Shown: positions 2,677-22,723 of the stretch, one piece after another
Layout of the letters: each line of letters opens with the position of its first letter
How positions within the stretch are numbered: position 1 is the first letter of the stretch
Assembly (NCBI GenBank): GCA_000165345.1
Contig: CM000436.1
Coordinates: 416,001-480,000, forward strand
Length of the DNA: 64,000 bases
Direction: 5' to 3'
The notes under the pieces: generated by a model
What the model was told of the DNA's origin: nothing
Database searches by the model: none
What the model saw: the letters and a program-made list of their open reading frames with translations, nothing else
Made by a program: the position numbers and the translations under genes

Positions 2677-5600
2677 ATGTTAAAGAAGATTTTTGGTAAA
2701 AAGAATGAGGAGGGAGAAGATGGTGTAAAACCAGTAAAAGCTAATTTAGGAGAGGAAAATAAATTCTATTATAATAAGGAGTTAAAAAGTTGGGTTGTTC
2801 GTGGGGAAGAACACTTAGTCGAGCAGAAGCAAAACCTTCCACCTCCACCTCCAAAGAGGCCAACAACAACGGATTCTGGTACTAGGACAGAAAGTATGGC
2901 ATCTTTTTCCTCAGGTTCTCAGAGTACAGGAATAAGAAAGAATTTATATACTTCTACACCTGGATTGAATATTATGAAAAATTCCAAGGAGCAAATAGGA
3001 GGAATAATACCTGCTATAGGCTTTAACTCCTCCAATGCAAATGCAACTTTATTTGGTCCAGTTGGTGCGCCTAATAACAATAATGCTATAGATAACTTGG
3101 ACAATCAAAGTGGAAATTTAGAACCTGGTAAATACGATCCAAAGGATTTAAATGAAAAGCAAGGTATTCAAGAGCAAATCCAGGTTAGAAGTGATTCTAA
3201 AGAAGCAAGAAGAACATCTATTCAAGGAAAGGAACTAGAGGGCGAACATTTAGAGCTGAGTCCAAGCAACTTTGAAGGTTATTCTGCTGAAATTTCCGGG
3301 CTTGGTCGCCATTTACGAGAAGATCAGAACATATCAGTCCCGTCTTCGTCTTATACAAATTTCACTAATCAAAGCAGTGCTAATACAATATCAATAACTA
3401 ATAAAGTACTCCCTCCTATACCATCTTTACCAAATGCAGCTATTTCAAATCGTGATTTAACATATGGAGTATCTCAAAGAAGAGCATCTCTCCAGGATTC
3501 TCCTTTATCGTTTATTTCAACTCCAAATGTAATTCAGAATCCAAAGGATACTTTGGGAGAAAAAATGGAGGAGGCTTCAACATCCCAGAATCAGTACATT
3601 CACCAAGAGATTTCTGGAAAGCAAGTTTGTCAAGAATTTGATTATAATAATATTGGAATTTCAATCCAAGGTTTGAATGAACAGCAAGAAAATATGATGG
3701 AAAGTATGAGAAACCAAGTAGAGGAAAGCAAGATGAACTCAACTATTTCAAATTCAGAGAGTGACCAGACTGAAATCCTATATACTCAGAATGATATGAG
3801 ACAAAGACAAAGAATAAGACCACTGTCTCAGAGAAGTGCTGCTTCAAACGGTATTTCTGGATTAACTGAGAAAAATGAACAAATAGATGTAATTAAAGAA
3901 AAAATGGATATAAATTGGAATAAAGCCTCCTCTGGAGGTGAAGTTGTAAATCATAGAGTGAGCAATACACCAAAAATGGAGTCATCCATTCTTGAGTTGA
4001 TTTCATTTTTTGGATTCAAATATGACGAGAAATCCCAAAAGTTATTGGATAATTTGGAGTATAATGAGAATATGAATATTAGCGAACAACATTATTCTGC
4101 TCAGAAAGAAGAAAAGAGGAGTTTAACACAAGTTTGTATAGATATTAAGGAAAATAAGTTAAAACAAATGAACTTTTTGGTTGGAAAAATTTTCAAAAGT
4201 TTACAAGACTCTAGTAGTGAGTATGATAGTTTATTGGAGATGATTTTGAATATTGGTAACATTACAAATAAGACATTTCAAGAAATTTCAGGGACTATTA
4301 ACATAGTAATGTCCAATAGTGATGAGATTGAAAAGGAGCTTATTAAAACTAGGGGGTTGTATCTAGACTTAGTTAAAAAGTACAAGGCAATATATAAGCA
4401 GTACGAGACAGATATGATAACTTTGAGAAGTGAATTAGAAAATGAGAAGAATATGAACATTACAAATTCTAAAGAGTTTGAGGAGAAGTTAAAGAGGGTT
4501 CAGGATGAGTTTTCATCAAATGAAGCTTCAAATAACGAATTACTGCACCAATATTATTCATATATTCAAGATCTACAACATAGATTTGAAGAAATGCAAG
4601 AGAATATGCAAGGAAAGGATCTTGAGATTAAGATGTCAGAGGAAGAGATTCAGAAGTTAAAATCTGAAATTGAAGAATTAAGAATAAAGTTAGAAGAGAA
4701 AAAAAGAGAGTTTATGCTAGCTTCAGAAAAGTTTGAAGAGTATGAGAGAGAAAATCAGAGATTAAGAGAAAGTAATGAAGAATTGATTTCGCTTTCAAAA
4801 TTGAATGAAGAGAATAGCAAACAAGAAAGAATAGTATTAATTGAGGAGCATAAACAGGAGCTAGAGTTAATGGAGAAGTTCAGTCGCGAGCAAGATGAAC
4901 ATATTAATCAACTTCAAAAGAGTATAGGTGACTTAAGTGAGGAAAGATCTGAGCTACTGAATCAAAGTGAACAGCTAAGGAATGAGATTATGATAATTAA
5001 AGCACAAGTTGAGAACTTAGTAGAAGAGAAGTCTAAGATAGAGGAAGAAGTCTTGACCTTAAGTTCACAAAACCAAGACAAGTCCTCAAGAATTATTGAA
5101 CTAGAAAGTATGATTGGAACTGAGTCACAGAGAATGGAAACAGTTTCTAGAGAAATGGAAGAATTAAAAGGCTTGAATAGTCAGATGGAACAAAAAATAG
5201 AGGAAATTGAAAAGGAAAAGATTCAAATAGAGTCAGAATTAAGACTAGAAAAGGAAAGCTCAGTTGAAAATTTCGAGAAATTGTCAAAAGAATTAGAGGA
5301 AATGACACTAAAGAGCCAGAGTTTAATGGAAGCTTCTAAGGATGAAATGGAGTCTGAGAGAAGAAAGTTGAAGGAAGAGCTGGAATCTAAGACTGAGGAG
5401 TATAATAAGCATATTAATTGGTTAGAAAGTGAAATTTCAAGAGTTGATGAGGAGTGGAGGACAAGACAAACACATATTGAGGCAAACTATGAACAGCTTT
5501 ATGCACAGTATATGGATTTGAGCTCAAGAGAAGGCGAACTTGGAGTTTTACAGGAAAGGGTTAACGAACTTGAATCTGAAAAGGTTAATAGAAATGAGTA

Positions 5601-6294
5601 CATTTCAGAATTAGAAACGAAATTGAATGAAAGTCAAAATGACAACAGGGTTTCAGAGCTAGAAGAGAGACTGAAAGAAATTGAGATCCAGAATCAAGAC
5701 AATTCAAACAAACTCAAAGAATCTGAGGAAGAGATTCTGAGAGGCAAAATGTCCATTAGTGAGCTTGAGGCTCGTCTTGAATCTGAAACAGGTAGAAACA
5801 AGTCTCTAAATGATGAAGTTGAAAGCTTACAGACTTCAAATGGAACTTATTTGGCTAGAATCGAGGAACTGGAGAGAAGGCTTGAAAGCTCTGAGCAATA
5901 CAAAGACTACATGTGTAAACTTGAACAGAGAACATTAGAACTCGAAAGCTCCTTAGAAGTAAAGTGTAAGGAATATGACTCATTAGAAGAGCAACATAAC
6001 AAGTTGATAAATGAAAACAAAGAACTCGAAAGATTAAATAGTCATGAAAATAATCATCAAATGAAACTTGAGAACGAAAAACTTAAAGAAACTAATGAAG
6101 CAGTCTATATCAAACTGGAAGCTTTCTCCAGAGATATTGACATGCTTAATAATCAACTTGAGTGGGTCAGAAGATATTCCCCACAAGTATATGAAGCAAT
6201 GCTCGAAAATACCTATCAATATTCTGGCCCATCCTTTGATAGTAATCCCAACAACCCCGGTGCTGAACACGAAATTTCCGATATTGCTCTGTAG
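2677..6294 (+). CDS. Large coiled-coil protein (1205 aa): proline- and S/T-rich N-terminal half, about 600 aa of E/K/L-rich heptad coiled coil at the C-terminus
   Basis: ORF track. PPPPPKRP motif near the N-terminus. C-terminal half is dominated by ELE / KLE / EEL repeats typical of myosin-tail or golgin-like coiled coils. No catalytic motif seen. Confidence 0.6.
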   Translation: MLKKIFGKKNEEGEDGVKPVKANLGEENKFYYNKELKSWVVRGEEHLVEQKQNLPPPPPKRPTTTDSGTRTESMASFSSGSQSTGIRKNLYTSTPGLNIMKNSKEQIGGIIPAIGFNSSNANATLFGPVGAPNNNNAIDNLDNQSGNLEPGKYDPKDLNEKQGIQEQIQVRSDSKEARRTSIQGKELEGEHLELSPSNFEGYSAEISGLGRHLREDQNISVPSSSYTNFTNQSSANTISITNKVLPPIPSLPNAAISNRDLTYGVSQRRASLQDSPLSFISTPNVIQNPKDTLGEKMEEASTSQNQYIHQEISGKQVCQEFDYNNIGISIQGLNEQQENMMESMRNQVEESKMNSTISNSESDQTEILYTQNDMRQRQRIRPLSQRSAASNGISGLTEKNEQIDVIKEKMDINWNKASSGGEVVNHRVSNTPKMESSILELISFFGFKYDEKSQKLLDNLEYNENMNISEQHYSAQKEEKRSLTQVCIDIKENKLKQMNFLVGKIFKSLQDSSSEYDSLLEMILNIGNITNKTFQEISGTINIVMSNSDEIEKELIKTRGLYLDLVKKYKAIYKQYETDMITLRSELENEKNMNITNSKEFEEKLKRVQDEFSSNEASNNELLHQYYSYIQDLQHRFEEMQENMQGKDLEIKMSEEEIQKLKSEIEELRIKLEEKKREFMLASEKFEEYERENQRLRESNEELISLSKLNEENSKQERIVLIEEHKQELELMEKFSREQDEHINQLQKSIGDLSEERSELLNQSEQLRNEIMIIKAQVENLVEEKSKIEEEVLTLSSQNQDKSSRIIELESMIGTESQRMETVSREMEELKGLNSQMEQKIEEIEKEKIQIESELRLEKESSVENFEKLSKELEEMTLKSQSLMEASKDEMESERRKLKEELESKTEEYNKHINWLESEISRVDEEWRTRQTHIEANYEQLYAQYMDLSSREGELGVLQERVNELESEKVNRNEYISELETKLNESQNDNRVSELEERLKEIEIQNQDNSNKLKESEEEILRGKMSISELEARLESETGRNKSLNDEVESLQTSNGTYLARIEELERRLESSEQYKDYMCKLEQRTLELESSLEVKCKEYDSLEEQHNKLINENKELERLNSHENNHQMKLENEKLKETNEAVYIKLEAFSRDIDMLNNQLEWVRRYSPQVYEAMLENTYQYSGPSFDSNPNNPGAEHEISDIAL

Positions 6295-6622
6295 CTCCGC
6301 GGGGCAACCCCACAATGCCCGCCATCGACTGCATGGATTTCCCGCCATGAAGCGGGTATTGATTTTAGGTTTTTTCTTTGGAGAGGGTTCCGAGCCTTAA
6401 GTACTGTCTAAAGTAATGGCCCCTCTTGGGCTAGAGGGGGGGAGCAGGAGGGAAAAGCTGTGAGAAAAAGGAAAGAGGAGGAGAGGATAAGAAAGAACTA
6501 AAAACGGCTAGTAAAAAGAGTAACAAGACTGTGTGAAAGAAGCCTCAAGTGTGAGGAAGAGGTAAGACTTTTGGAATTGGAAGAGACTAGAAGAGTCTAA
6601 CTTCAATAGAAAGACAGTTATA

Positions 6623-6660
6623 TTTCTATATATGTATATGTATATATACATATATAGAAA
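6623..6660. repeat. AT-rich hairpin: 17-bp inverted repeat TTTCTATATATGTATAT / ATATACATATATAGAAA with a 4-bp loop
   Basis: Direct reading. Lies between the coiled-coil gene 3' end and the USP7-like gene. Confidence 0.6.
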
Positions 6661-6805
6661 TATATATATATTTACATGCAATATATATAATAGCGAGTAA
6701 ATAAATCGTCAATAGAAGGATAATCTTCAAGCCTCTAATTTTAGGAGGGATTGAAAGATTGAATGAGCCAAGCAAGGATTTTTAATTTCTAGCAAGACTG
6801 AGTAA

Positions 6806-9800
6806 ATGCATACTGGGCGTAATATAGAGAGGCCGTCCATGGAAGGCTTCTCGAGTAGAGAAAAACAGTATGACTACTCGAATATACCAGGACGGCTTCA
6901 AAATGAATTGGAGTTTAAGGTTGAGGGTTTTAGAAGAAGGATTATGGAGATGATGAACAGTACCGAGGGGGGTACGAAGAACCGACTATATTCAAATATT
7001 CACAGTTATAAAAACTTTAATTTTCGAATAATGATTCTTCCAAAGGTTAAATTGACTAGTGGAGGTTCGTTAGAAGGTCATATTTCTGCTTATTTGGAGG
7101 CAATCCCATCGCAAAATTGGCCTTCAAACTGGGTATGGTTGAATACAAGATATTCTGTGACCTTAATTAACCAAAAAGATTACAGAAAATCTCACTTTAT
7201 GAGTGATATATTCAGCTTTAAAGGAGAAAATGACCCAAAGAAGAAACTTACATTGGAGGAGAGAAATTATGACTATAGCTCTGCAGGCCCAGAAGCCGAT
7301 CGTGGTTGGAGTGATTTTTTTAGCTTAAAGACTCTCTTGGATCCAAAAACTGGTTTTATTGATTCTGAGACAGAAACAGTAATTTTCAGAGCTGGTGTAT
7401 TTCCGGTTTTATGTGATCCAGTTTCGTGTGGAAAGTCAAATTTTGACCATTTGGGAACTGATCGATCACTAACTGGATATGTTGGAATTCGAAACCTTGG
7501 AGCTACATGTTATATGAACTCCCTACTACAATCTCTATATCATATTGGAAGATTCAGAAAAGCTGTCTATACTATTCCCCTGAACCCAAATAGAGTCACA
7601 TCAGGCTCATCATGTTCTAATACTCCGATAAGTAGAGAAACAAGACCTGAATTAACTCCTTTGAGTGCTTGTATTCCTAAGATAGATGATTTCGGAGAGG
7701 TCACTCCTCAAAGTATTAGTTCTGAATCTAATAGCCTTGCCATTTCTTTATTGGGAGAAGCCTCAGAGGATGCTGTAGAATGGACCAGTAATGTTGCAAA
7801 AAGTCTTTTTGAGTATGAAAGTGATGGTATTGCTAGTCTTGAAAGTATTATGTCTTCAAATGCATGCCAAGATTATGGACAGAATACCGGTGTAGTAAGC
7901 GGTAATGTATCTGGTCCGGGATCTACAATAGGAGGAAACTGCTCAGCTTCGGATGCTGGAAATGATCAAACGAAGATTAGTTCTGCTCTCCAAACCTTAT
8001 TTTACGAGCTTCAAACCTGTTCAGAACCTGTGAATTGTCGTGAACTGATGAGATCTTTTGGCTGGGATGCTTCAGATGCATTCACCCAACATGATGCACA
8101 AGAGTTAAATAGACTACTTTGTGACCGTCTTGAGGAGGAAATGAAGAATACTGCTGTTGATGGGAGCATTAAAGCTCTTTTTGAAGGAGAGTATGAAAAT
8201 TATATCGAGTGCTTGGATGTTGATTGTACTTCTAGAAGGAGAGAAAACTTTTACGACATTCAAGTTGATGTTGAAGGAGTAAAGTCATTAGAGGAAAGTC
8301 TCCAGCGTTTTGTAGAGGAAGAAATTTTGGATGGTGAAAACCTCTATGAGGCTGAGGGCTTTGGAAAACAGAGAGCAAAGAAGGGAGTTAGATTCCAAAG
8401 ATTCCCACCTGTTGTTCAGTTCCATTTGAAGAGATTCCAATTCAATATTCAAAGTATGGATATGGTCAAGTTGAATGATTACTTTACTTTTCCAGAAAAA
8501 TTGGATCTATCTAGCTTTGTGAATCATAATAATAAAGGAGAAACAGATACTGGTAATATTGTAGAAGGTACCGAAAAGTATATATTACATACTGTTGTCA
8601 TTCATCAGGGGGATGTTCATAGTGGACATTATTATGCCTATATACGTCCAAAACCTGATTCAGACTGGTTTAGATTTGACGATGAAAAGGTTACTCTAGT
8701 TTCATCTTCTACAGCTATTGAAGATAATTTTGGAGGCCATGAGTATGAAGTTTGGGATTATTTGGGAAACCCAGAAAGTGATATTCCAAAAAGATCCAAA
8801 ACCCACTCAGCTTACATCTTGGTATATGTTAGGGAGGACCAAGCTCAAGATTTGCTTTCGGAGCCAATTCCTCAGGAGGTCAATCCTGATTTAGTTTCTA
8901 AATACAGAAAAGAGATTGAGATGATGAATCTTCGAAAGAGACTTAGACAAGATCTGAATGAGCATGTTCGAATTCAATTATTGTTATCAACAAGTTATAA
9001 TATCTCATCCTCTTGTCGTCCAAAATCCCAAGGTCTTCATCAAAGTATTTCATCCTTCCCATGGAATTACATATTCAAATGTTCAAGGGACTTTTCTTTG
9101 TCTCAGTTCCATTCTGAGCTTGAAAAAAGATTCTTGAACAAAAGGATGCTTCATAATGATGTTCCTAGTAGTAGTATTAGTTGTAATAAAGCTTTTGGAT
9201 CTCATTTATTCCTTCTGGAAACCAACCCGGAGGGAAACCACACTGCTTCAGGAGGAGCAAGAGGAATGGGTGGATTACATCATCATATTGGATACTCAAA
9301 TGGAGGCCCTACATCCTCAACCGGTCTATCCTTTTATACATGCATTTCATCTCCCCAAGGAGAGGGAATTAGCTCTGGAAACCGGATATCAGATTCTCAA
9401 AGAGGCGGAGCTGGTGGAATGCTAGGTAGAGCTATTGGATTTGGAAGTTCAACTTCTGGTACAAGATCAGGAGATGAGATCTTAATGTCGGATCTATGTA
9501 GAAGATACCATCGTGCAGGCCTTTGGGACTCATCTTGCCCAACTTTATATATGTGTTTGTATCTTGATGATGTCTCAAGCTTATTAATGGACCGAATCCC
9601 TCCAAATCTACCAATTAATGCAGATGGTTCATATTTAGAGAAGAGACAAAGGATTGAAAATAAGCTCAGAAACTTTAATGATAATGGAGGAGGAGAAGTT
9701 TTGCTTCTCTTGAGATATTTTGATATCTCAAACCCTAGGATCAATGAATTCTCCTTAAAATACTCTAGAAATCAGGAGATTCCAAATCTTTATAATCTAG

Positions 9801-13562: not shown

Positions 13563-14723
13563 ATGCAGAATGTTTCAGCATTATGTACGGTATGTGATTA
13601 CAAGTTGGATAGTACAAGTTTATTGAGAGAGCACTATAAGACAGAATGGCATAATTACAATCAAAAGAGAAAGTTAGCAAATAAAGACCCAGTGTCAGAG
13701 ATAGCATTTAAGAGAAAACTAGAACTATTAGAGTGTACAAAGGTGGTAGTGAACAAAGGTAGTTCACACATTAAGAATAAACAAAAGATAGATGGACAAG
13801 AAAATTATAAAATGAATGAAAGTGTATCGGTAGATATGAATCAAGATAAACCAAGACAATCTGATACTTATGAATTAACATATTGTTATTTTGATAATAC
13901 AATACACTCAAGTATGGAAGAATGTTTTGAGTATATGAGAATAAAGTATTCATTTGTAATACCAGATAAAGAGTATTTGGTTGACTATAAAGGTTTAGCT
14001 CAATATTTGGGTGAAAAATTGTTTGAAGGTCATATTTGTTTATATTGTGATAAAATATTTTCAAGTTTAAGAGCAGTTAGAGATCATATGATAAGTTTGG
14101 GTCATACAATGTTAGGAACTCATTTAGATATTCAAAAAGAAGAGTTGGAAAGTTTTTATAACTATTCTTTATCATACAAGGAACTAATTCCAAATTTTAA
14201 TAAATTATCAATTACTGATGATGTTCTTAAAGAGGAGAATAATGATGACTGGGAATACATTGATGAAGAAGAAGAAGAAGATGATGATGATGATGATTTT
14301 AGTGGCAATACAAATGAAATTAGGAAGTTAAATAAAAAAGAAATGACATTGGATGAAATTTTAAGTATGTATAATTTAAGTAAGCCAGAAATTACTGAAT
14401 TTGGTGATTTAAGACTTCCAAATGGAAAAGAAGTTGTACATAGAAATTTGGCATATATATATAAACAGAGAATACCAAGAAAACATCAATTTGAAATGGA
14501 GGATGGAAATAATTCAACTCTTGTTTTAAAAAATAGACATCACAATAAAAAAATTAATATTTATGGAAATAATCAATTTGGCTTAAATTTGAAATTTAAA
14601 GATAAGTCACATTTGAAGCAAAATCTACTTTTAAGTAAGAGAATTAAGAATGTTAATTTGAAGGTTGGGGTTAATAATAATAAATTACAGAAATATTTTG
14701 TAAGAAGAGATGTTGTTTGGTAA
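13563..14723 (+). CDS. REI1: Cytoplasmic pre-60S maturation factor REI1/ZNF622-type C2H2 zinc-finger protein
   Basis: First finger CTVCDYKLDSTSLLREHYKTEWHNYNQKRK matches the REI1/ZNF622 signature (C..C....HY.S.WH.YN.KRK). Second finger pair HICLYCDKIFSSLRAVRDHMISLGH. Acidic DDDDDD linker. Confidence 0.75.
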   Translation: MQNVSALCTVCDYKLDSTSLLREHYKTEWHNYNQKRKLANKDPVSEIAFKRKLELLECTKVVVNKGSSHIKNKQKIDGQENYKMNESVSVDMNQDKPRQSDTYELTYCYFDNTIHSSMEECFEYMRIKYSFVIPDKEYLVDYKGLAQYLGEKLFEGHICLYCDKIFSSLRAVRDHMISLGHTMLGTHLDIQKEELESFYNYSLSYKELIPNFNKLSITDDVLKEENNDDWEYIDEEEEEDDDDDDFSGNTNEIRKLNKKEMTLDEILSMYNLSKPEITEFGDLRLPNGKEVVHRNLAYIYKQRIPRKHQFEMEDGNNSTLVLKNRHHNKKINIYGNNQFGLNLKFKDKSHLKQNLLLSKRIKNVNLKVGVNNNKLQKYFVRRDVVW

Positions 14724-14737
14724 TTAAATAATATAAA

Positions 14738-15307
14738 TTATAATTGTCCACATTCATATATAATTATAGGTATCTTAGGTTTACTATTTGGAGGTAGAAC
14801 TGTGGCATTTTCAATCTTTTTCAAAGTTGCAAAAGAATCATGTCCTAATAATTGTCCAAAAACTACGTGTTTATTATCTAACCAAGAACATGTATTACAA
14901 GTAATAAAGAATTGGCATCCATTTGTATTTGGGCTACCATTATTTGCCATAGAAAGAAGTCCAGGTTTTGTATGCTTGATTTCAAAATTTTCATCATTAA
15001 AATAGCTTGTATTATATATAGATGTACTACCAGTACCATCTCCATTTACGAAATCACCACCTTGTATTACAAAGTCTTTGATTACTCTATGTATTGTAGA
15101 TCCTTTATATCCCACACTTTTTAAGTTTTTTTTATATTCTCCAGTACAAAATTGTCTAAAGTTTTCACTTGTTTTGGGCACAATATCTTGAAATAATTCT
15201 ATTACTAGTCTTCCAATTTTATTGTTTTCATCTAGTAAACAAATATCTAAAAAGACTACAGGATTATCTTTATGCCTTTGTGGTCTTAATTCTGGGTCTT
15301 TAATCAT
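14738..15307 (-). CDS. Peptidyl-prolyl cis-trans isomerase, cyclophilin type
   Basis: Classic cyclophilin blocks: [61 protein letters not shown]. Lies only 14 bp from the REI1 stop, convergent. Confidence 0.9.
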
Positions 15308-15392: not shown

Positions 15393-15428
15393 CAAACTTT
15401 GGCGGGCCACAATTCCCGCCAAAGTTTG
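15393..15428. promoter_or_regulatory. Inverted repeat of E2F-like sites CAAACTTTGGCGGG-(8 bp)-CCCGCCAAAGTTTG in the divergent cyclophilin / nucleoporin promoter
   Basis: Perfect 14-bp arms read directly. Core TTTGGCGGG / CCCGCCAAA matches the E2F consensus TTTSSCGC. Sits 85 bp upstream of cyclophilin and 50 bp upstream of the nucleoporin start. Confidence 0.6.
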
Positions 15429-15477: not shown

Positions 15478-17190
15478 ATGAGTAATAGGAGACCATGTCA
15501 ATTCTATTTGAGAGGATCATGTAGATTTGGTGATAATTGTAGAGACTACCATCCAAATGGATCTATGTTTGATCAGGGTATCAATAGTAGAGGTGGTAAT
15601 GTATTGAGTGGTACTAATACAAGTGGGTTTGGAGTGGGAGGAGGTCAGTTTAATCCATTTTCTGGCTCTATTGGTAAGCCTTTAGGTGATATGAATAGTT
15701 CATTTACTTCAGGAGGAGGAACAGGTATGGGTCCATTTGGGAATTTTGGAGGTCCATTTGGAGGTGGTAGTTCAGGAGCAATAGGAGTAGGTAATGGTTC
15801 TTTTGGTGGTGGGATAACATCAAATCCATTTGGAGGTGGGAATACATCAACTACAGGATCCATTTTTGGATCAAGTCCATTTGGAAGTTCAGTTAGTGGA
15901 TCTGGTTCTTCAACAATATCTACTACAGGGCCTACAACAGGGTCTATTTTTGGGTCAAGTCCATTTGGAGGTTCAATTAGTGGGTCTGGCTCTACATCTG
16001 CAATTGGATCCAGTCCATTTGGATCTGCAGTTGGTGGATCAGGGTCAATATCTTCTTCTTCTTCTTCTTCTTCTTCTTCTTCTTCTTCTTCTTCTTCTAC
16101 AGGAAATGTTAAGCCATCAAAATCTGATAACCCAACATTACAGATTTTGGAACTCATTGGAGTAGTTGTTAATAGTGGAGTATGGCCATTTGGAAGGATA
16201 GGATTATTAAATCAGTCTCAAGATTCATCTAATTCTCAAGTATTTCCAAGTTTGGATTTAAGTATTGAAGAATATAGATGGAAGTTTTATCAGAGTGATC
16301 CAGGTAATTGGAATAATTTACATTTGGAAACTTTAAGATTACTAACACAACAATATAATTCGTTTATTGAGCAGGGAAAAATTCAATCAAAGCTTCCAGC
16401 TACACATCAACTATATAATTTAGACTTTAGTTTATATTCTAAGATTGGAAACTGGTATTTACCTAATTTAGGTAAAGACTATGTAAATAAGCCTAATAAT
16501 ACAAATACTGGTGTTACTACTACTACTATTAATACTAATACTAATACTAATAATACTACTAATACTATTGGATCTATAGCAAATCCTTTTGGAGGTACAA
16601 CATTAGGATTTGGCCAAGGAACAGTATTACAAAGTAATAATTCTAATACAAGTCCATTTGGAGTCTTTGGATCTTCTTCTGCTTCATCTTCTTCCATTAT
16701 GTCTAATAATGCTTTGAGTCCTTTTGGAGGAACAGGAGGTGGTAATGGTATTGGAAGTGGTATAGTTAACAATTCAGTATTTGGTATTACAAACCAATCA
16801 CAAACACAGTCACAACAACAACAACAACAAACATCACCTTTTTCTGGTGGTAATATTCAAACAAATATAAATCAACCACTTTCTGTTGAAAGTAGTAATA
16901 ATAACAATAATAACTTTGGTATTTTTGGATCACAAGGTACCGGTTCAAATATATCCAACAATTTTAATAATATTTTTGGAAATATAACAAATCAACAAAA
17001 TCAAACTTCAAAGTCTGCTGGAACTAATATAAAGTATTCCTATAATAACCCAGATGTGAATGATGATAATCATTCATTTAATTCTCAAAATTTACAAGAA
17101 TGGGAATTGAATGCATTTAAAAGTTCAACTTTTGAAGAAAACAAGATTCCTGAAAAGATACCTCCAAGATACCTTAGAATGTATAGTTGA
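15478..17190 (+). CDS. FG-repeat nucleoporin with N-terminal CCCH zinc finger (Nup42/NUPL2-hCG1-like)
   Basis: N-terminus RPCQFYLRGSCRFGDNCRDYHP (C-x8-C-x5-C-x3-H). Then many FG/PFG repeats (SSPFGS, SNPFGGG, NPFGGT, SPFGVFG, NNFGIFG) in an S/G/N/T/Q-rich low-complexity background. That architecture is characteristic of Nup42/NUPL2. Confidence 0.6.
   Translation: MSNRRPCQFYLRGSCRFGDNCRDYHPNGSMFDQGINSRGGNVLSGTNTSGFGVGGGQFNPFSGSIGKPLGDMNSSFTSGGGTGMGPFGNFGGPFGGGSSGAIGVGNGSFGGGITSNPFGGGNTSTTGSIFGSSPFGSSVSGSGSSTISTTGPTTGSIFGSSPFGGSISGSGSTSAIGSSPFGSAVGGSGSISSSSSSSSSSSSSSSSTGNVKPSKSDNPTLQILELIGVVVNSGVWPFGRIGLLNQSQDSSNSQVFPSLDLSIEEYRWKFYQSDPGNWNNLHLETLRLLTQQYNSFIEQGKIQSKLPATHQLYNLDFSLYSKIGNWYLPNLGKDYVNKPNNTNTGVTTTTINTNTNTNNTTNTIGSIANPFGGTTLGFGQGTVLQSNNSNTSPFGVFGSSSASSSSIMSNNALSPFGGTGGGNGIGSGIVNNSVFGITNQSQTQSQQQQQQTSPFSGGNIQTNINQPLSVESSNNNNNNFGIFGSQGTGSNISNNFNNIFGNITNQQNQTSKSAGTNIKYSYNNPDVNDDNHSFNSQNLQEWELNAFKSSTFEENKIPEKIPPRYLRMYS
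16051..16098 (+). repeat. (TCT)16 trinucleotide microsatellite encoding a poly-Ser run inside the nucleoporin CDS
   Basis: Direct reading: tcttcttct... repeated about 16 times. Confidence 0.9.
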
Positions 17191-17424
17191 ATGGAATACC
17201 AAATATAAACTAGCCATTATATATTTAAGTAACTTTATATTAGAAATATAATACTTATAATACAATTCTAAAAATAATAATTATAATAATAAGACTATTT
17301 ACTTGTATTTATCATAATCTTTAATCTCCAATGTCTAAATTTTTAAATGTTATATAAAACTAATATTATTCTATAACAATAATGTATAAAATTTCGAGTG
17401 AATTTATTTATATATAAAAAAAAG

Positions 17425-17498
17425 CGCCGCCACTGGGGATCGAACCCAGGACCACATGGTTAAGAGCCATGCGCTCTACCTAGCTGAGCTATAGCGGC
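17425..17498 (-). tRNA. tRNA-Lys (anticodon CUU)
   Basis: Reverse complement reads GCCGCTA-TA-GCTCAGCTAGGTAGAGC-G-CATGG-CTCTTAA-CCATG-TGGTC-CTGGG-TTCGATC-CCCAG-TGGCGGC-G. 7-bp acceptor stem, D arm, 5-bp anticodon stem with loop CTCTTAA (anticodon CTT), T arm with TTCGATC loop. No encoded CCA. Confidence 0.85.
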
Positions 17499-17846: not shown

Positions 17847-18835
<989 letters not shown>

Positions 18836-18839
<4 letters not shown>

Positions 18840-21800
18840 ACGTTACTCAACTGAGTATCAACATAACTCATTAACGATAGCCTGAGCTGCTCTTTTTCTT
18901 CAATATTAGCATCCACGCTCTCAAAAGATATATATGGATAATTGTGCCACTGAGACAAATCGTCATTAAGTAAATCTATTGTAGCTTTTTTTTCTCCTTG
19001 TTCATGTCCAATTCTATTCAGTCCATAGAAATCGCAGGATTCATCCCAAAATACCTTTAGTGTATCTATTAATTTCTCATTAATATATATTCCTCTATTA
19101 GGTAGAATATTCTTTTTTAAATTTGGCATGCCTTCATACTCACTCTCATCAATAAAGTCTTCAAAATTCTCTTTTTCTCCTACTCCTCCTTTTGTTCCTT
19201 CCTTTGTTCCTTCTCCTTCTATTCTTTCTCCCTCTATTTCCTCCCCTTCTTCTACTCCTACTTCTATTCCTTCTCCCCATTCTCCTACTGTTTCTAAATC
19301 CTCCTCCAAGTCTTCCATCTCAACCTCCAGCCTCTTCTCTAATTCATTTTCGTCCAAATTAGTTATATTATCGCCTCTATCATCCTCTAAATCCTCCTCC
19401 CCTTTTTTCTCCTTATCTTTCTCTTTTTCTCTTTCCCTCAAAATTTCTTCCTCACGAAATGCCTTCTTAACCTCCAATTCATTAATTATTAAATATTTCA
19501 ACAAACAACCTGGTTGCCTCATTCTAGAGCATGATTGAGAAATCTTCCATTTCTTCTTTAATATTTTCTTATCATTAAATTTACCTCCCAAATACTTATT
19601 ATACTTTAAATAATTCTCAGCCATCTTTTCAGAAACTGGAGTTAAAGGCAATTCAATTATACTATCTGATAATAACTTTAATGTATCATTCAATATATAA
19701 ACCCCGTTCCCTTTTTCTTTATCTTTCTCTCCCGTAAATTCTCTCCTTTCCTCCTTGTCTCTCTCCTCCTTTTCCTCCTCACTATCTTCTTTCACAAAAG
19801 ATAAATACTCTTCTAATGTAATATTATACTCGTAATCCTTCGCCCCTATTATATCAAAAACTGGCCTACTTTTATTTATGATTCCTTCTATACTTTCTTC
19901 TTCCAAATGTAAATGATTATAATCATTCATCATATTCTTATCCACACTATCATTTTCTTCAAAATACCTACAAGAACATAATGGGAATGGCTGAGTCTCT
20001 AAAGATGGGATATGAACACATTCATCATTAAAAATCTTAAATAACATAGATTCTTGTACCCACAATGCTCCCGGTACCTTTTTAAATTCTTTTTGATAAT
20101 CAAATCCATTTGTTATTGCTAATGGTAGTTCAACCTTTGCTGAATTCATTATCTCATTCATACTCCAATTGCTATCATCTGAATATATACCCAATTTTCT
20201 TTTATAATTATTTCTATTCCTCCTATTCTTGAAATCTTCCAAACTTTTCTTCCCCCTAACTATATAATCCTCTTCAATTACATCCAAATCTGGAGTATCT
20301 GTAAGCTGTGATGAATCCATAACAATATCTGGAGTTATATCCATTTCACTTAATATTGGAGTATTAATATCATCATTTCTTAACTCGATATTTTCATTAT
20401 CTCTTAAACCCAACTCTTCAACATTCCTTTCTTGTTCCAAATCTTTGCATTCATCCTTTTCCCAATCATCTTCACACTCCAACAACCAATCTATTAATTC
20501 CTGTCCGTTATATACTCTAGTATTATAGTATTGTCTCTTTGTTAATTGTTCATTAACCACCTCCAACTCACTATTTTTACCATCTTCTTCATCCATACCC
20601 TTATTCTCCGTTCTATTATTTTCTTTTCTTCCTCCTTTTCCTCTTATTCCTCCTCTTTTCTTTTCATGAATACAATTCCCTTCCACCATATCCTCTTGAA
20701 AATTTTGTAAGTTATCTGAACCAATAAATTTTACTCGACTTTCAATTCTTCCCATCCTATCCTCAACTTTTGGTTCCATAATCTGTGGAAACCTAACTAT
20801 TTTATTTAATTCAGACCCCAAACCATTTTCTTTCCTTAAAATGAACTGATAAAACTCTCCCAAAGATTCTTTCATTCGTTTTGTCAAATAAACTCCATTC
20901 AATTCATTCATAAATACCTGATCATACAATAACCTTCTGATCTTATCTAGCCTTTCGCTTCCTTCCATTATTTCTCCTGATACTCCTTCTCCTCTAAAGT
21001 CTATACATTCCTCTTTAACCAAATATATGTTTGTACATGATAATCTTCCACATGTACTTAAAGATAAAAATATCAAACCTTGATTTATTTTATCATCCTC
21101 ATTCTCTTCAAATCTCTCTTTATTATTTTCTGAATTATTTAATAATATATTATGACGAGAAGTACTAGGTGGAATTACCAAGTATCCTCCCATATATTCC
21201 TTCTTCAATGAAAATACTGTCAAACCTGATAATCCATGAAATATTTGAGATAAAATATTATCATCTATTGAATAACTTTCCAAAATCATATCCAATAAAT
21301 CAACATTTGATTCCAATAACTGTGTTATTTTTGGAATATAGTAATTTCTATCCTGGTTAAGATCCCATGTACCCATAGATAACTCTTTAACTCCTTTTAA
21401 ACTCATCTTATAATATTGATTTGAATTCATTTCATCATACTCTAATTCTATTAAAGAATATATTACTCTGGAATAACTTGAACAATACAGCATTAAGCCA
21501 CATTTACATATATTTATTCCTTGTTCAATCTTTACCATCTCTGGATTTACCCATTCTATATACCTAAATCTACTTGTATGATTACCTAAACTCTCTGTAA
21601 ATGGTATAGAAAACTCTCCCAACGGTATTCTTGAATTCTGATATAAATCTATTACAACAACTTTACTTGATCTTGAATCTATAAGTGCTACCAAATTTGA
21701 ATAAATCGGATGTACCGATATCCCAGTAATATTAGAATAAGAAATATTCTTTTTTCTTAATATTTGTAATTTCATTAATCTGTCTTTATATGAAACCAAG

Positions 21801-22723
21801 TTCCTCAATGTATTCTCCTCCAACTCATCTTCTTCCAAATCTATTACATTACTATCCTTACATGGAAATAACATTCTTACTTGATAATTATTTTGACTAT
21901 CCTTTTTTAATATATATAATCCTTTCCCACCCAACAAATAAGAATTTGGGTTACTTCCATATGTTATACATTGTATTACTTCATTTCCAAATTCATAAAT
22001 TGTATTCAAATTTAATTCCATCTTTTTCTCTATTATACCATACCTTAAAGATATTCTTAATATTATTCGATTTGATAATAATAATGTAAATTCTAAAAAA
22101 TCATATAAACTTGAAATTATTGAATATATGGTCACTCCAGAATTACCATTATTATTTAATAAGCCTTCAATACCTTCCATTTCTCTAAATCTATCAATTA
22201 AATCACTTATCTTACTTTTTAATAAAATTCTATACTCTAATCCCTCTTCTTGTTCACTATTTCTCAAATTCACTACAACCAATTCATCTGAAGATCTTGC
22301 AAATATGTTAATACCATTTGATTTGTCATAAAAGAAATCGCTACTTGCTTGCAACTTAATATCCATTATTGATTTCTTCATTATATTTGGTATTAACATT
22401 AATCTTTTAAAGTAAAAGTCATCCGAATCTTTAAATTTATCCAAAATGAGTACTTCTAGTCCATTATCTTCTGTACCATATCTTTGAACCAAAATAGGAC
22501 CAGATTCTATTCCTATATCCACTCCTGTACAACTCTTGACACATGATTCAATTTCATTATCTATAATCCTTGTTGAATAGACATTATAACATAAATGAGA
22601 TGGTGAATAACTGTTTTCTTTTGGTAATATTGTATTGGTTAATAAAGTTGTTATATTTGGTGCTTTATGACGCCAAACAACTCTGGAATGCCTAAGTGGA
22701 TATTGAAATATATTTTCCTTCAT
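18836..22723 (-). CDS. Large hypothetical protein (1295 aa) with acidic low-complexity C-terminal region
   Basis: Long clean ORF. One short DEP-like fragment (VYNGQELIDWLLE) is too weak to call a domain. Its stop codon overlaps the Tsr3 stop codon (convergent). Confidence 0.5.

Follow-up and report, generated by a model that had tools for sequence, protein, structure and literature searches.

A probable Cryptosporidium orthologue of the nucleoporin Nup42 with a CCCH finger, an Amo1_N-type central domain and a predicted Gle1-binding tail

A single-exon gene in a 64,000-nucleotide stretch of Cryptosporidium DNA (NCBI GenBank assembly GCA_000165345.1, contig CM000436.1, positions 416,001 to 480,000 of the forward strand; this whole stretch is referred to as the window, and all coordinates are given within it) very probably encodes the Cryptosporidium orthologue of Nup42, the nucleoporin with phenylalanine-glycine (FG) repeats that is called NUP42, NUPL2 or hCG1 in humans, Amo1 in Schizosaccharomyces pombe and Nup42 or Rip1 in Saccharomyces cerevisiae. 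Nup42 retains the mRNA-export factor Gle1 at the nuclear pore. The window is AT-rich (32% G+C) and its encoded proteins match Cryptosporidium. The open reading frame (ORF), located at 15478..17190 on the plus strand, was confirmed exactly in the ORF list and translation: it runs uninterrupted from ATG to TGA, encodes 570 amino acids (aa) and represents a complete coding sequence. An earlier annotation of this gene, made from its sequence (hereafter the initial annotation), had proposed a Nup42/NUPL2-type nucleoporin, and this call is supported by the tail motif, by a central domain of the Amo1_N type and by the order in which the modules follow each other.

The 570-aa protein aligns end to end with orthologues from 12 Cryptosporidium species or isolates, and across the genus its N-terminal finger, central domain and tail are nearly invariant, whereas the FG blocks differ widely, both in length and in sequence. 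An identical protein was not found in a collection of 15 billion sequences; the nearest record belongs to a near-identical assembly (three substitutions plus indels in homopolymer tracts) and the nearest named match, with 95% identity, is a C. hominis protein called "CCCH like finger domain nucleoporin". The initial annotation thus overstated how fresh the assignment was, as public records already give orthologues this name (some Cryptosporidium orthologues are merely named "zinc finger protein"), and we treat the gene as an ordinary orthologue of an already known nucleoporin, of low novelty.

Three non-FG modules of the NUP42 type

The C-terminal tail carries a predicted Gle1-binding motif (aa 535-567; 17080..17178, plus strand) of the form L-x2-WE-x2-AF-x4-F-x3-KIPEK-x-PP, supported by a tail profile, hhalign and alignments. 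Given that a phmmer search with the full-length protein against the PDB returned unrelated CCCH-finger proteins only (ZGPAT, ZMAT5, M2-1, and MBNL1), the tail was searched separately as a profile. A comparison of the C-terminal ~60 aa with the Gle1-binding motif of Nup42 had been suggested in the initial annotation, and its outcome was favorable: with a profile built only from Cryptosporidium tails and run against 177,635 PDB sequences, the top three matches were the human NUP42/NUPL2 peptides 7tbl_f, 6b4j_C and 6b4f_C (E 0.0046-0.006; the next match had E 0.8), i.e., the NUP42 Gle1-binding peptides that were crystallised with GLE1. Profile-profile comparison by hhalign with vertebrate NUP42 tails gave P 1.6e-5 and a probability of 79%. 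The pattern F-x4-F-x3-K-[IV]-P-x3-PP is invariant across Cryptosporidium, coccidian and vertebrate tails, in terms of residues F547, F552, K556, P558, P562 and P563. A profile made of apicomplexan tails only did not reach the yeast Nup42 peptide among the PDB sequences; a combined profile that includes vertebrate sequences aligns it ("KIFRANKFELGLVPDIPPPP", 6b4e_C), with F547 and F552 placed opposite yeast F409 and F414. In yeast, F414D or the double substitution F409D/F414D abolishes binding to Gle1, F414 being the critical residue, and the Nup42 motif forms a small hydrophobic unit folded onto Gle1's C-terminal domain (PMC5998080). The Pfam family NUP42_C (PF27899) is precomputed on the C. 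felis (P0009) and T. gondii orthologues, and the two core phenylalanines together with the KIP...PP segment would place the tail of the window protein in the same family.

The second module is a conserved central non-FG domain (aa 216-338, 123 aa; 16123..16491, plus strand), which profile and hhalign comparisons identify as belonging to the Amo1_N/NUP42 central type. Its core (aa 229-296) includes SGVWPFG and LDLSIEEYRW as motifs. The domain is better conserved across the genus than any other part of the protein, 16% of its residues are charged and its AlphaFold2 model is helical (predicted local distance difference test score, pLDDT, about 68). Both this helical domain and its Amo1_N character had been overlooked in the initial annotation. 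An exhaustive search of 1.84 billion representative proteins with a profile of aa 212-338 matched Cryptosporidium proteins and four weak ones, three of which are apparently genuine, i.e., Hammondia HHA_310610 (E 8e-6), Besnoitia BESB_072110 (2e-5) and a 99-aa fragment (3e-6); the fourth (P0017, E 8.7e-4), a repetitive 184-aa sequence, is apparently spurious. No Plasmodium orthologue was detected by this profile at E <= 0.001 in the same collection, and a profile in which central domain and tail were concatenated matched a single T. gondii protein and failed to reach metazoan NUP42. HHA_310610 and BESB_072110 are FG proteins themselves and have the central motif GVWPFS ... GLD-x-SPEEHR-x-LF in common with Cryptosporidium. 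By hhalign, the central domains of Cryptosporidium and coccidia match with E 2e-14 (probability 98%), and those of coccidia and vertebrate NUP42 with P 3.2e-5 (probability 72.5%).

The Pfam assignments follow the same chain. A T. gondii orthologue (P0018) carries precomputed PF27634 (Amo1_N) and PF27899, as do most of the 120 vertebrate NUP42 proteins listed, and from vertebrate isoforms without the tail, and others without the first half of the central region, we could deduce that PF27634 corresponds to the central domain and PF27899 to the tail. Amo1, after which PF27634 is named, is the S. pombe homologue of Nup42/hCG1 (PMC4049921). The Cryptosporidium domain joins Amo1_N transitively, via the coccidian proteins. 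The vertebrate NUP42 sequences were retrieved with a human query sequence that is 97% identical to the Pongo NUP42 record, and only the retrieved database sequences were used in the comparisons.

At the other end of the protein, a single CCCH zinc finger occupies aa 4-26 (15487..15555, plus strand; ligands C7, C15, C21 and H25), and passes the Pfam gathering scores of both zf-CCCH_4 (24.9 bits, cut-off 24.6) and zf-CCCH (23.0 bits, cut-off 20.5). Thus, the finger of the initial annotation is present, although not with the C-x8 spacing given there: a regular-expression search of the translation reads aa 7-25 as CQFYLRGSCRFGDNCRDYH, spaced C-x7-C-x5-C-x3-H. The finger of primate NUP42 is spaced identically and likewise lies at the extreme N-terminus (aa 4-22), and 13 of 20 residues of the two fingers are identical (pairwise BLASTP, E 2e-8). 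A single N-terminal CCCH finger is present in vertebrate members of the Nup42 family and is not family-wide. The tristetraprolin/ZFP36 type, with two tandem C-x8-C-x5-C-x3-H fingers and a fixed 18-residue linker, was considered and rejected, the protein having one finger with x7 spacing.

A single pairwise BLASTP comparison with primate NUP42 shows finger, central domain and tail to be collinear. Human NUP42 (also NUPL2, hCG1 or NLP1), an FG nucleoporin of the cytoplasmic filaments, shares these three non-FG modules and their order, including a central domain with SG-x-W-x-F ... D-[IL]-S-x-EE-x-R, a tail with F-x4-F-x3-KIP-x3-PP, and FG repeats of low charge. The Cryptosporidium protein differs in an additional FG block of ~175 aa between finger and central domain, a position taken in the human protein by an FG-poor linker, and in its homopolymer tracts (Ser16, Gln6, Asn6, and Thr/Asn) and predominance of PFG/SPFG repeats. 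With S. cerevisiae Nup42/Rip1 and S. pombe Amo1 it has FG repeats and the C-terminal Gle1-binding motif in common; S. cerevisiae Nup42 is not known to have either the finger or the central domain. The coccidian proteins TgNup43 (TGGT1_310610), HHA_310610 and BESB_072110 combine FG repeats, the homologous central domain and a NUP42_C tail (AAFAAPQFEPGKIPDVPPP) and, unlike the Cryptosporidium protein, begin with FG repeats and show no CCCH finger.

FG blocks and homopolymer tracts

The protein contains 22 FG dipeptides (including 10 PFG and 5 SPFG), where its composition predicts 5.5 +/- 2.1; none of 20,000 residue shuffles reached this number, and 22 of its 36 phenylalanines are followed by glycine. 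The initial annotation had described about 500 aa of FG repeats, which are real, though not as a single stretch: there are two blocks, with the 123-aa central domain between them and a charged non-FG tail of 50 aa after the second. FG block 1 (aa 31-207; 15568..16098, plus strand) has 11 FG, mostly PFG/SPFG, is 71% S/T/G/N with 2.3% charged residues and ends in poly-Ser. FG block 2 (aa 366-505; 16573..16992, plus strand) has nine FG and 0.7% charged residues and contains the poly-Gln and poly-Asn tracts. FG repeats of low charge are a feature of the Nup42/NUPL2/hCG1/Amo1 proteins. Across the genus FG counts range from 7 to 22. In the orthologue alignment FG block 1 measures ~175 aa in the parvum/hominis/meleagridis/ubiquitum/canis group, whereas in C. 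muris, C. serpentis, C. felis, C. ryanae and C. bovis it is down to a few dozen residues; the parvum/hominis clade has an expanded block when compared with C. muris, C. felis, C. bovis and C. ryanae.

It could be argued that the protein is not a component of the pore: it would be a generic RNA-binding protein of the CCCH type whose low-complexity region is rich in Ser, Gly and Asn and whose FG dipeptides are a by-product of composition. Low-complexity regions of this kind are common in AT-rich apicomplexan genomes, Ser, Gly and Asn make up 45% of the protein, the full-length phmmer search against the PDB finds only unrelated CCCH proteins, and a bare "zinc finger protein" is what some orthologues are called. 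However, the FG excess is four-fold over compositional expectation, two further NUP42-specific modules are present and collinear, and the Toxoplasma orthologue is found at the nuclear pore (PMC12407827), so that we consider this explanation highly improbable. Just as little credence is given to the gene encoding an FG nucleoporin of another class (e.g., a central-channel protein like Nup62/Nsp1, or one like Nup98) whose tail resembles Nup42 fortuitously. FG blocks are indeed common to all FG nucleoporins and the tail match is short, with modest E-values; however, GLFG and FxFG motifs are absent from the protein, no nucleoporin domain of Pfam, be it Nsp1_C, the nucleoporin autopeptidase or another, is matched at E <= 1, finger, central domain and tail match NUP42 in the correct order, and the families carried by orthologues are NUP42_C and Amo1_N. 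The hallmarks of Nup62/Nsp1 (the Nsp1_C coiled coil) and of Nup98/Nup116 (GLFG repeats with a C-terminal autoproteolytic domain) were not found in it.

The poly-Ser at the end of FG block 1 (Ser192-207) is encoded by a perfect (TCT)16 microsatellite at 16051..16098 on the plus strand (Tandem Repeats Finder, TRF: period 3, 16.0 copies, 100% matches), just as initially annotated, and the expectation that it would be length-polymorphic also held when repeat lengths were compared: among related isolates and species it varies from 5 to 16 residues, with 16 in the window protein, 7 in the near-identical assembly, 6, 7, 8 and 9 in four C. hominis isolates, and 5 in C. tyzzeri and C. meleagridis. Three more tracts on the plus strand were found by TRF, i.e., a (TACTAA)n-type Thr/Asn-rich repeat at 16515..16567 (period 6, 8.8 copies) within a low-complexity Thr/Asn-rich linker (aa 339-365; 16492..16572) that differs in length between isolates, a CAA poly-Gln tract at 16812..16830 (4-8 Gln among isolates) and an AAT/AAC poly-Asn tract at 16897..16914. 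The lengths of all three vary when C. hominis, C. tyzzeri and the near-identical assembly are compared; some of the length differences, those in poly-Ser included, could be assembly error. The (TCT)16 array and the other homopolymer tracts may serve as a minor typing marker between isolates.

Gle1 and the coccidian counterparts

Cryptosporidium possesses a gene for Gle1, the partner that such a tail would bind. Chro.70044 is listed as the C. hominis Gle1 by Neumann et al. (PMC2951903), a 2010 study in which Nup42/hCG1 is not treated. Its portion of ~295 residues taken from the published alignment matches Pfam GLE1 with E 3.6e-22, and its best PDB matches are the human GLE1 chains 6b4f_B and 7tbl_e, which were solved with NUP42.

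In Toxoplasma, TgNup43 (TGGT1_310610) was predicted to be an FG nucleoporin in 2018 (PMC6062611) and validated at the nuclear pore in 2025, its loss having a fitness cost without being lethal (PMC12407827, a preprint). The same work places TgGle1 at the pore, where it is needed for mRNA export, leaves TgNup43 without subcomplex assignment and makes no mention of Nup42. The window protein is linked to TGGT1_310610 through Hammondia HHA_310610, whose gene number matches, and through the partial T. gondii VEG protein P0018, which is nearly identical to HHA_310610. The public model of the corresponding VEG gene (KI544494.1, about 5357..9554) is incomplete; its ORF apparently begins farther upstream, at MAAWP. 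A CCCH finger was not found in any of the six frames of this 15.5-kb locus; either coccidia may have lost it, or an intron may divide it. We propose that TgNup43 is the Toxoplasma orthologue of Nup42 and that it would belong, together with TgGle1, to the cytoplasmic mRNA-export platform, a proposal drawn from sequence homology. For the position at the nuclear envelope, on which the initial annotation had let its assignment depend, the pore localisation of TgNup43 provides support by proxy and reaches as far as this proxy.

Several points weigh against the assignment of the window gene to Nup42 and its place in mRNA export. The support for the Cryptosporidium protein consists of homology, the partner gene, and a localisation by proxy in Toxoplasma. 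The tail motif is short and its E-values are modest (0.005); among Cryptosporidium, NUP42_C is recorded for C. felis only, and the closest cluster (C. hominis, P0001) lists the finger only. Nor is the finger diagnostic by itself, the fingers of ZGPAT and ZMAT5 being about equally similar; since it is about as close to that of ZGPAT, it speaks for membership only when taken together with the other modules. The central domain is weakly similar to that of human NUP42 in direct comparison, and the direct hhalign between Cryptosporidium and vertebrates is weak (P 0.004, probability 8.5%), so that coccidian intermediates are needed; its register is identical to the one obtained through the coccidian chain, and BLASTP and MAFFT independently give this register, with SG-x-W-x-F and D-[IL]-S-x-EE-x-R aligned. 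A comparative study reported Gle1 missing from chromalveolates (PMC3032688), which is contradicted by the listing of Chro.70044, by its GLE1 match and by TgGle1 (PMC12407827); given the score of the Chro.70044 portion against Pfam GLE1, this absence appears to be a sensitivity artefact. Finally, two sources (PMC10777651; PMC3032688) describe apicomplexans as lacking a recognisable Mex67/NXF1 export receptor, which puts in question what the substrate of a Gle1-Dbp5-Nup42 module would be in these organisms.

Neighbouring genes and a proposed role in mRNA export

Upstream of the nucleoporin gene, and divergent from it, lies a gene for a cyclophilin-type peptidyl-prolyl isomerase (14738..15307, minus strand; Pfam). 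The 170-bp intergenic region between the two contains a perfect 14-bp inverted repeat, CAAACTTTGGCGGG-N8-CCCGCCAAAGTTTG (15393..15428; sequence check), situated 50-85 bp upstream of the nucleoporin ATG. Its core TTGGCGGG occurs six times in the window, compared with 0.18 expected, and none of 100 shuffles reached six; we take this core to resemble the E2F-type GGCGGG motifs reported upstream of Cryptosporidium genes. Tentatively, the inverted repeat may serve both genes as a shared promoter element. Further upstream, a protein with zf-C2H2_2 and zf-C2H2_jaz domains (13563..14723, plus strand; Pfam) presumably resembles the Rei1/ZNF622 type. Both this C2H2 zinc-finger protein and the cyclophilin are encoded by housekeeping genes with no evident nucleoporin link. 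On the downstream side, a tRNA-Lys(CTT) gene (17424..17498, minus strand) lies 234 bp downstream of the nucleoporin stop codon and is followed by an ORF with Ribo_biogen_C and an RLI-type Fer4-like domain (17847..18839, plus strand; Pfam), which we assume to be a Tsr3-type ribosome biogenesis protein and which contains more than 60 consecutive Glu/Asp residues, specified by a GAA/GAG-rich repeat. For the next ORF (18836..22723, minus strand; 1295 aa) no Pfam family was found at E <= 0.001.

By analogy with the known systems, the Cryptosporidium protein would bind Gle1, sit on the pore's cytoplasmic face and take part in mRNA export. The last ~33 residues would fold against the C-terminal domain of Gle1 and bury F547 and F552, an interaction that would both stabilise Gle1 and bring Nup42 next to it at the pore. 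Both FG blocks, nearly without charge, would then adjoin Gle1 and the DEAD-box ATPase Dbp5/DDX19, where they could capture the export receptors that carry messenger ribonucleoproteins (mRNPs) for the final remodelling step of mRNA export. RNA contact is a candidate role for the finger and protein docking one for the helical central domain, both being modules conserved in the family.

It is also conceivable that the protein is a true Nup42 homologue whose main job is other than anchoring Gle1, i.e., that it acts as a CRM1 export cofactor, as has been described for human NLP1/hCG1, or directly on RNA through finger and central domain, which would partly compensate for the missing Mex67/NXF1. Human hCG1 binds CRM1 and Gle1 via its non-FG regions (PMC9132428), finger and central domain are the parts most conserved across the genus, Cryptosporidium keeps the finger while none was found at the T. 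gondii locus, and Mex67 is not recognisable in apicomplexans. However, the key residues of the Gle1-binding motif do not vary and Cryptosporidium has a Gle1 gene, whereas binding to CRM1 or RNA draws no support from the present results. We regard such a main job as unlikely in either form, while noting that it is compatible with an orthologue of Nup42 as described above. Anchoring of Gle1 might also be only one of several tasks of Nup42, if finger and Amo1_N domain contacted the mRNA or an alternative export receptor directly; we think this quite unlikely, and if true, it would make Nup42 a part of a divergent apicomplexan terminal export step.

With the assignment of the window gene to Nup42, the cytoplasmic side of the apicomplexan nuclear pore, which is poorly defined, gains one firmly assigned component. 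A recognisable Nup42-Gle1 module is placed in Cryptosporidium and, by homology, in Toxoplasma, and current understanding is not overturned by it. For a pore protein that has already been validated, it provides a concrete hypothesis, namely that TgNup43 is Nup42 and binds TgGle1. Cryptosporidium keeps all three non-FG modules of vertebrate NUP42, which is compatible with the tripartite architecture being ancient.

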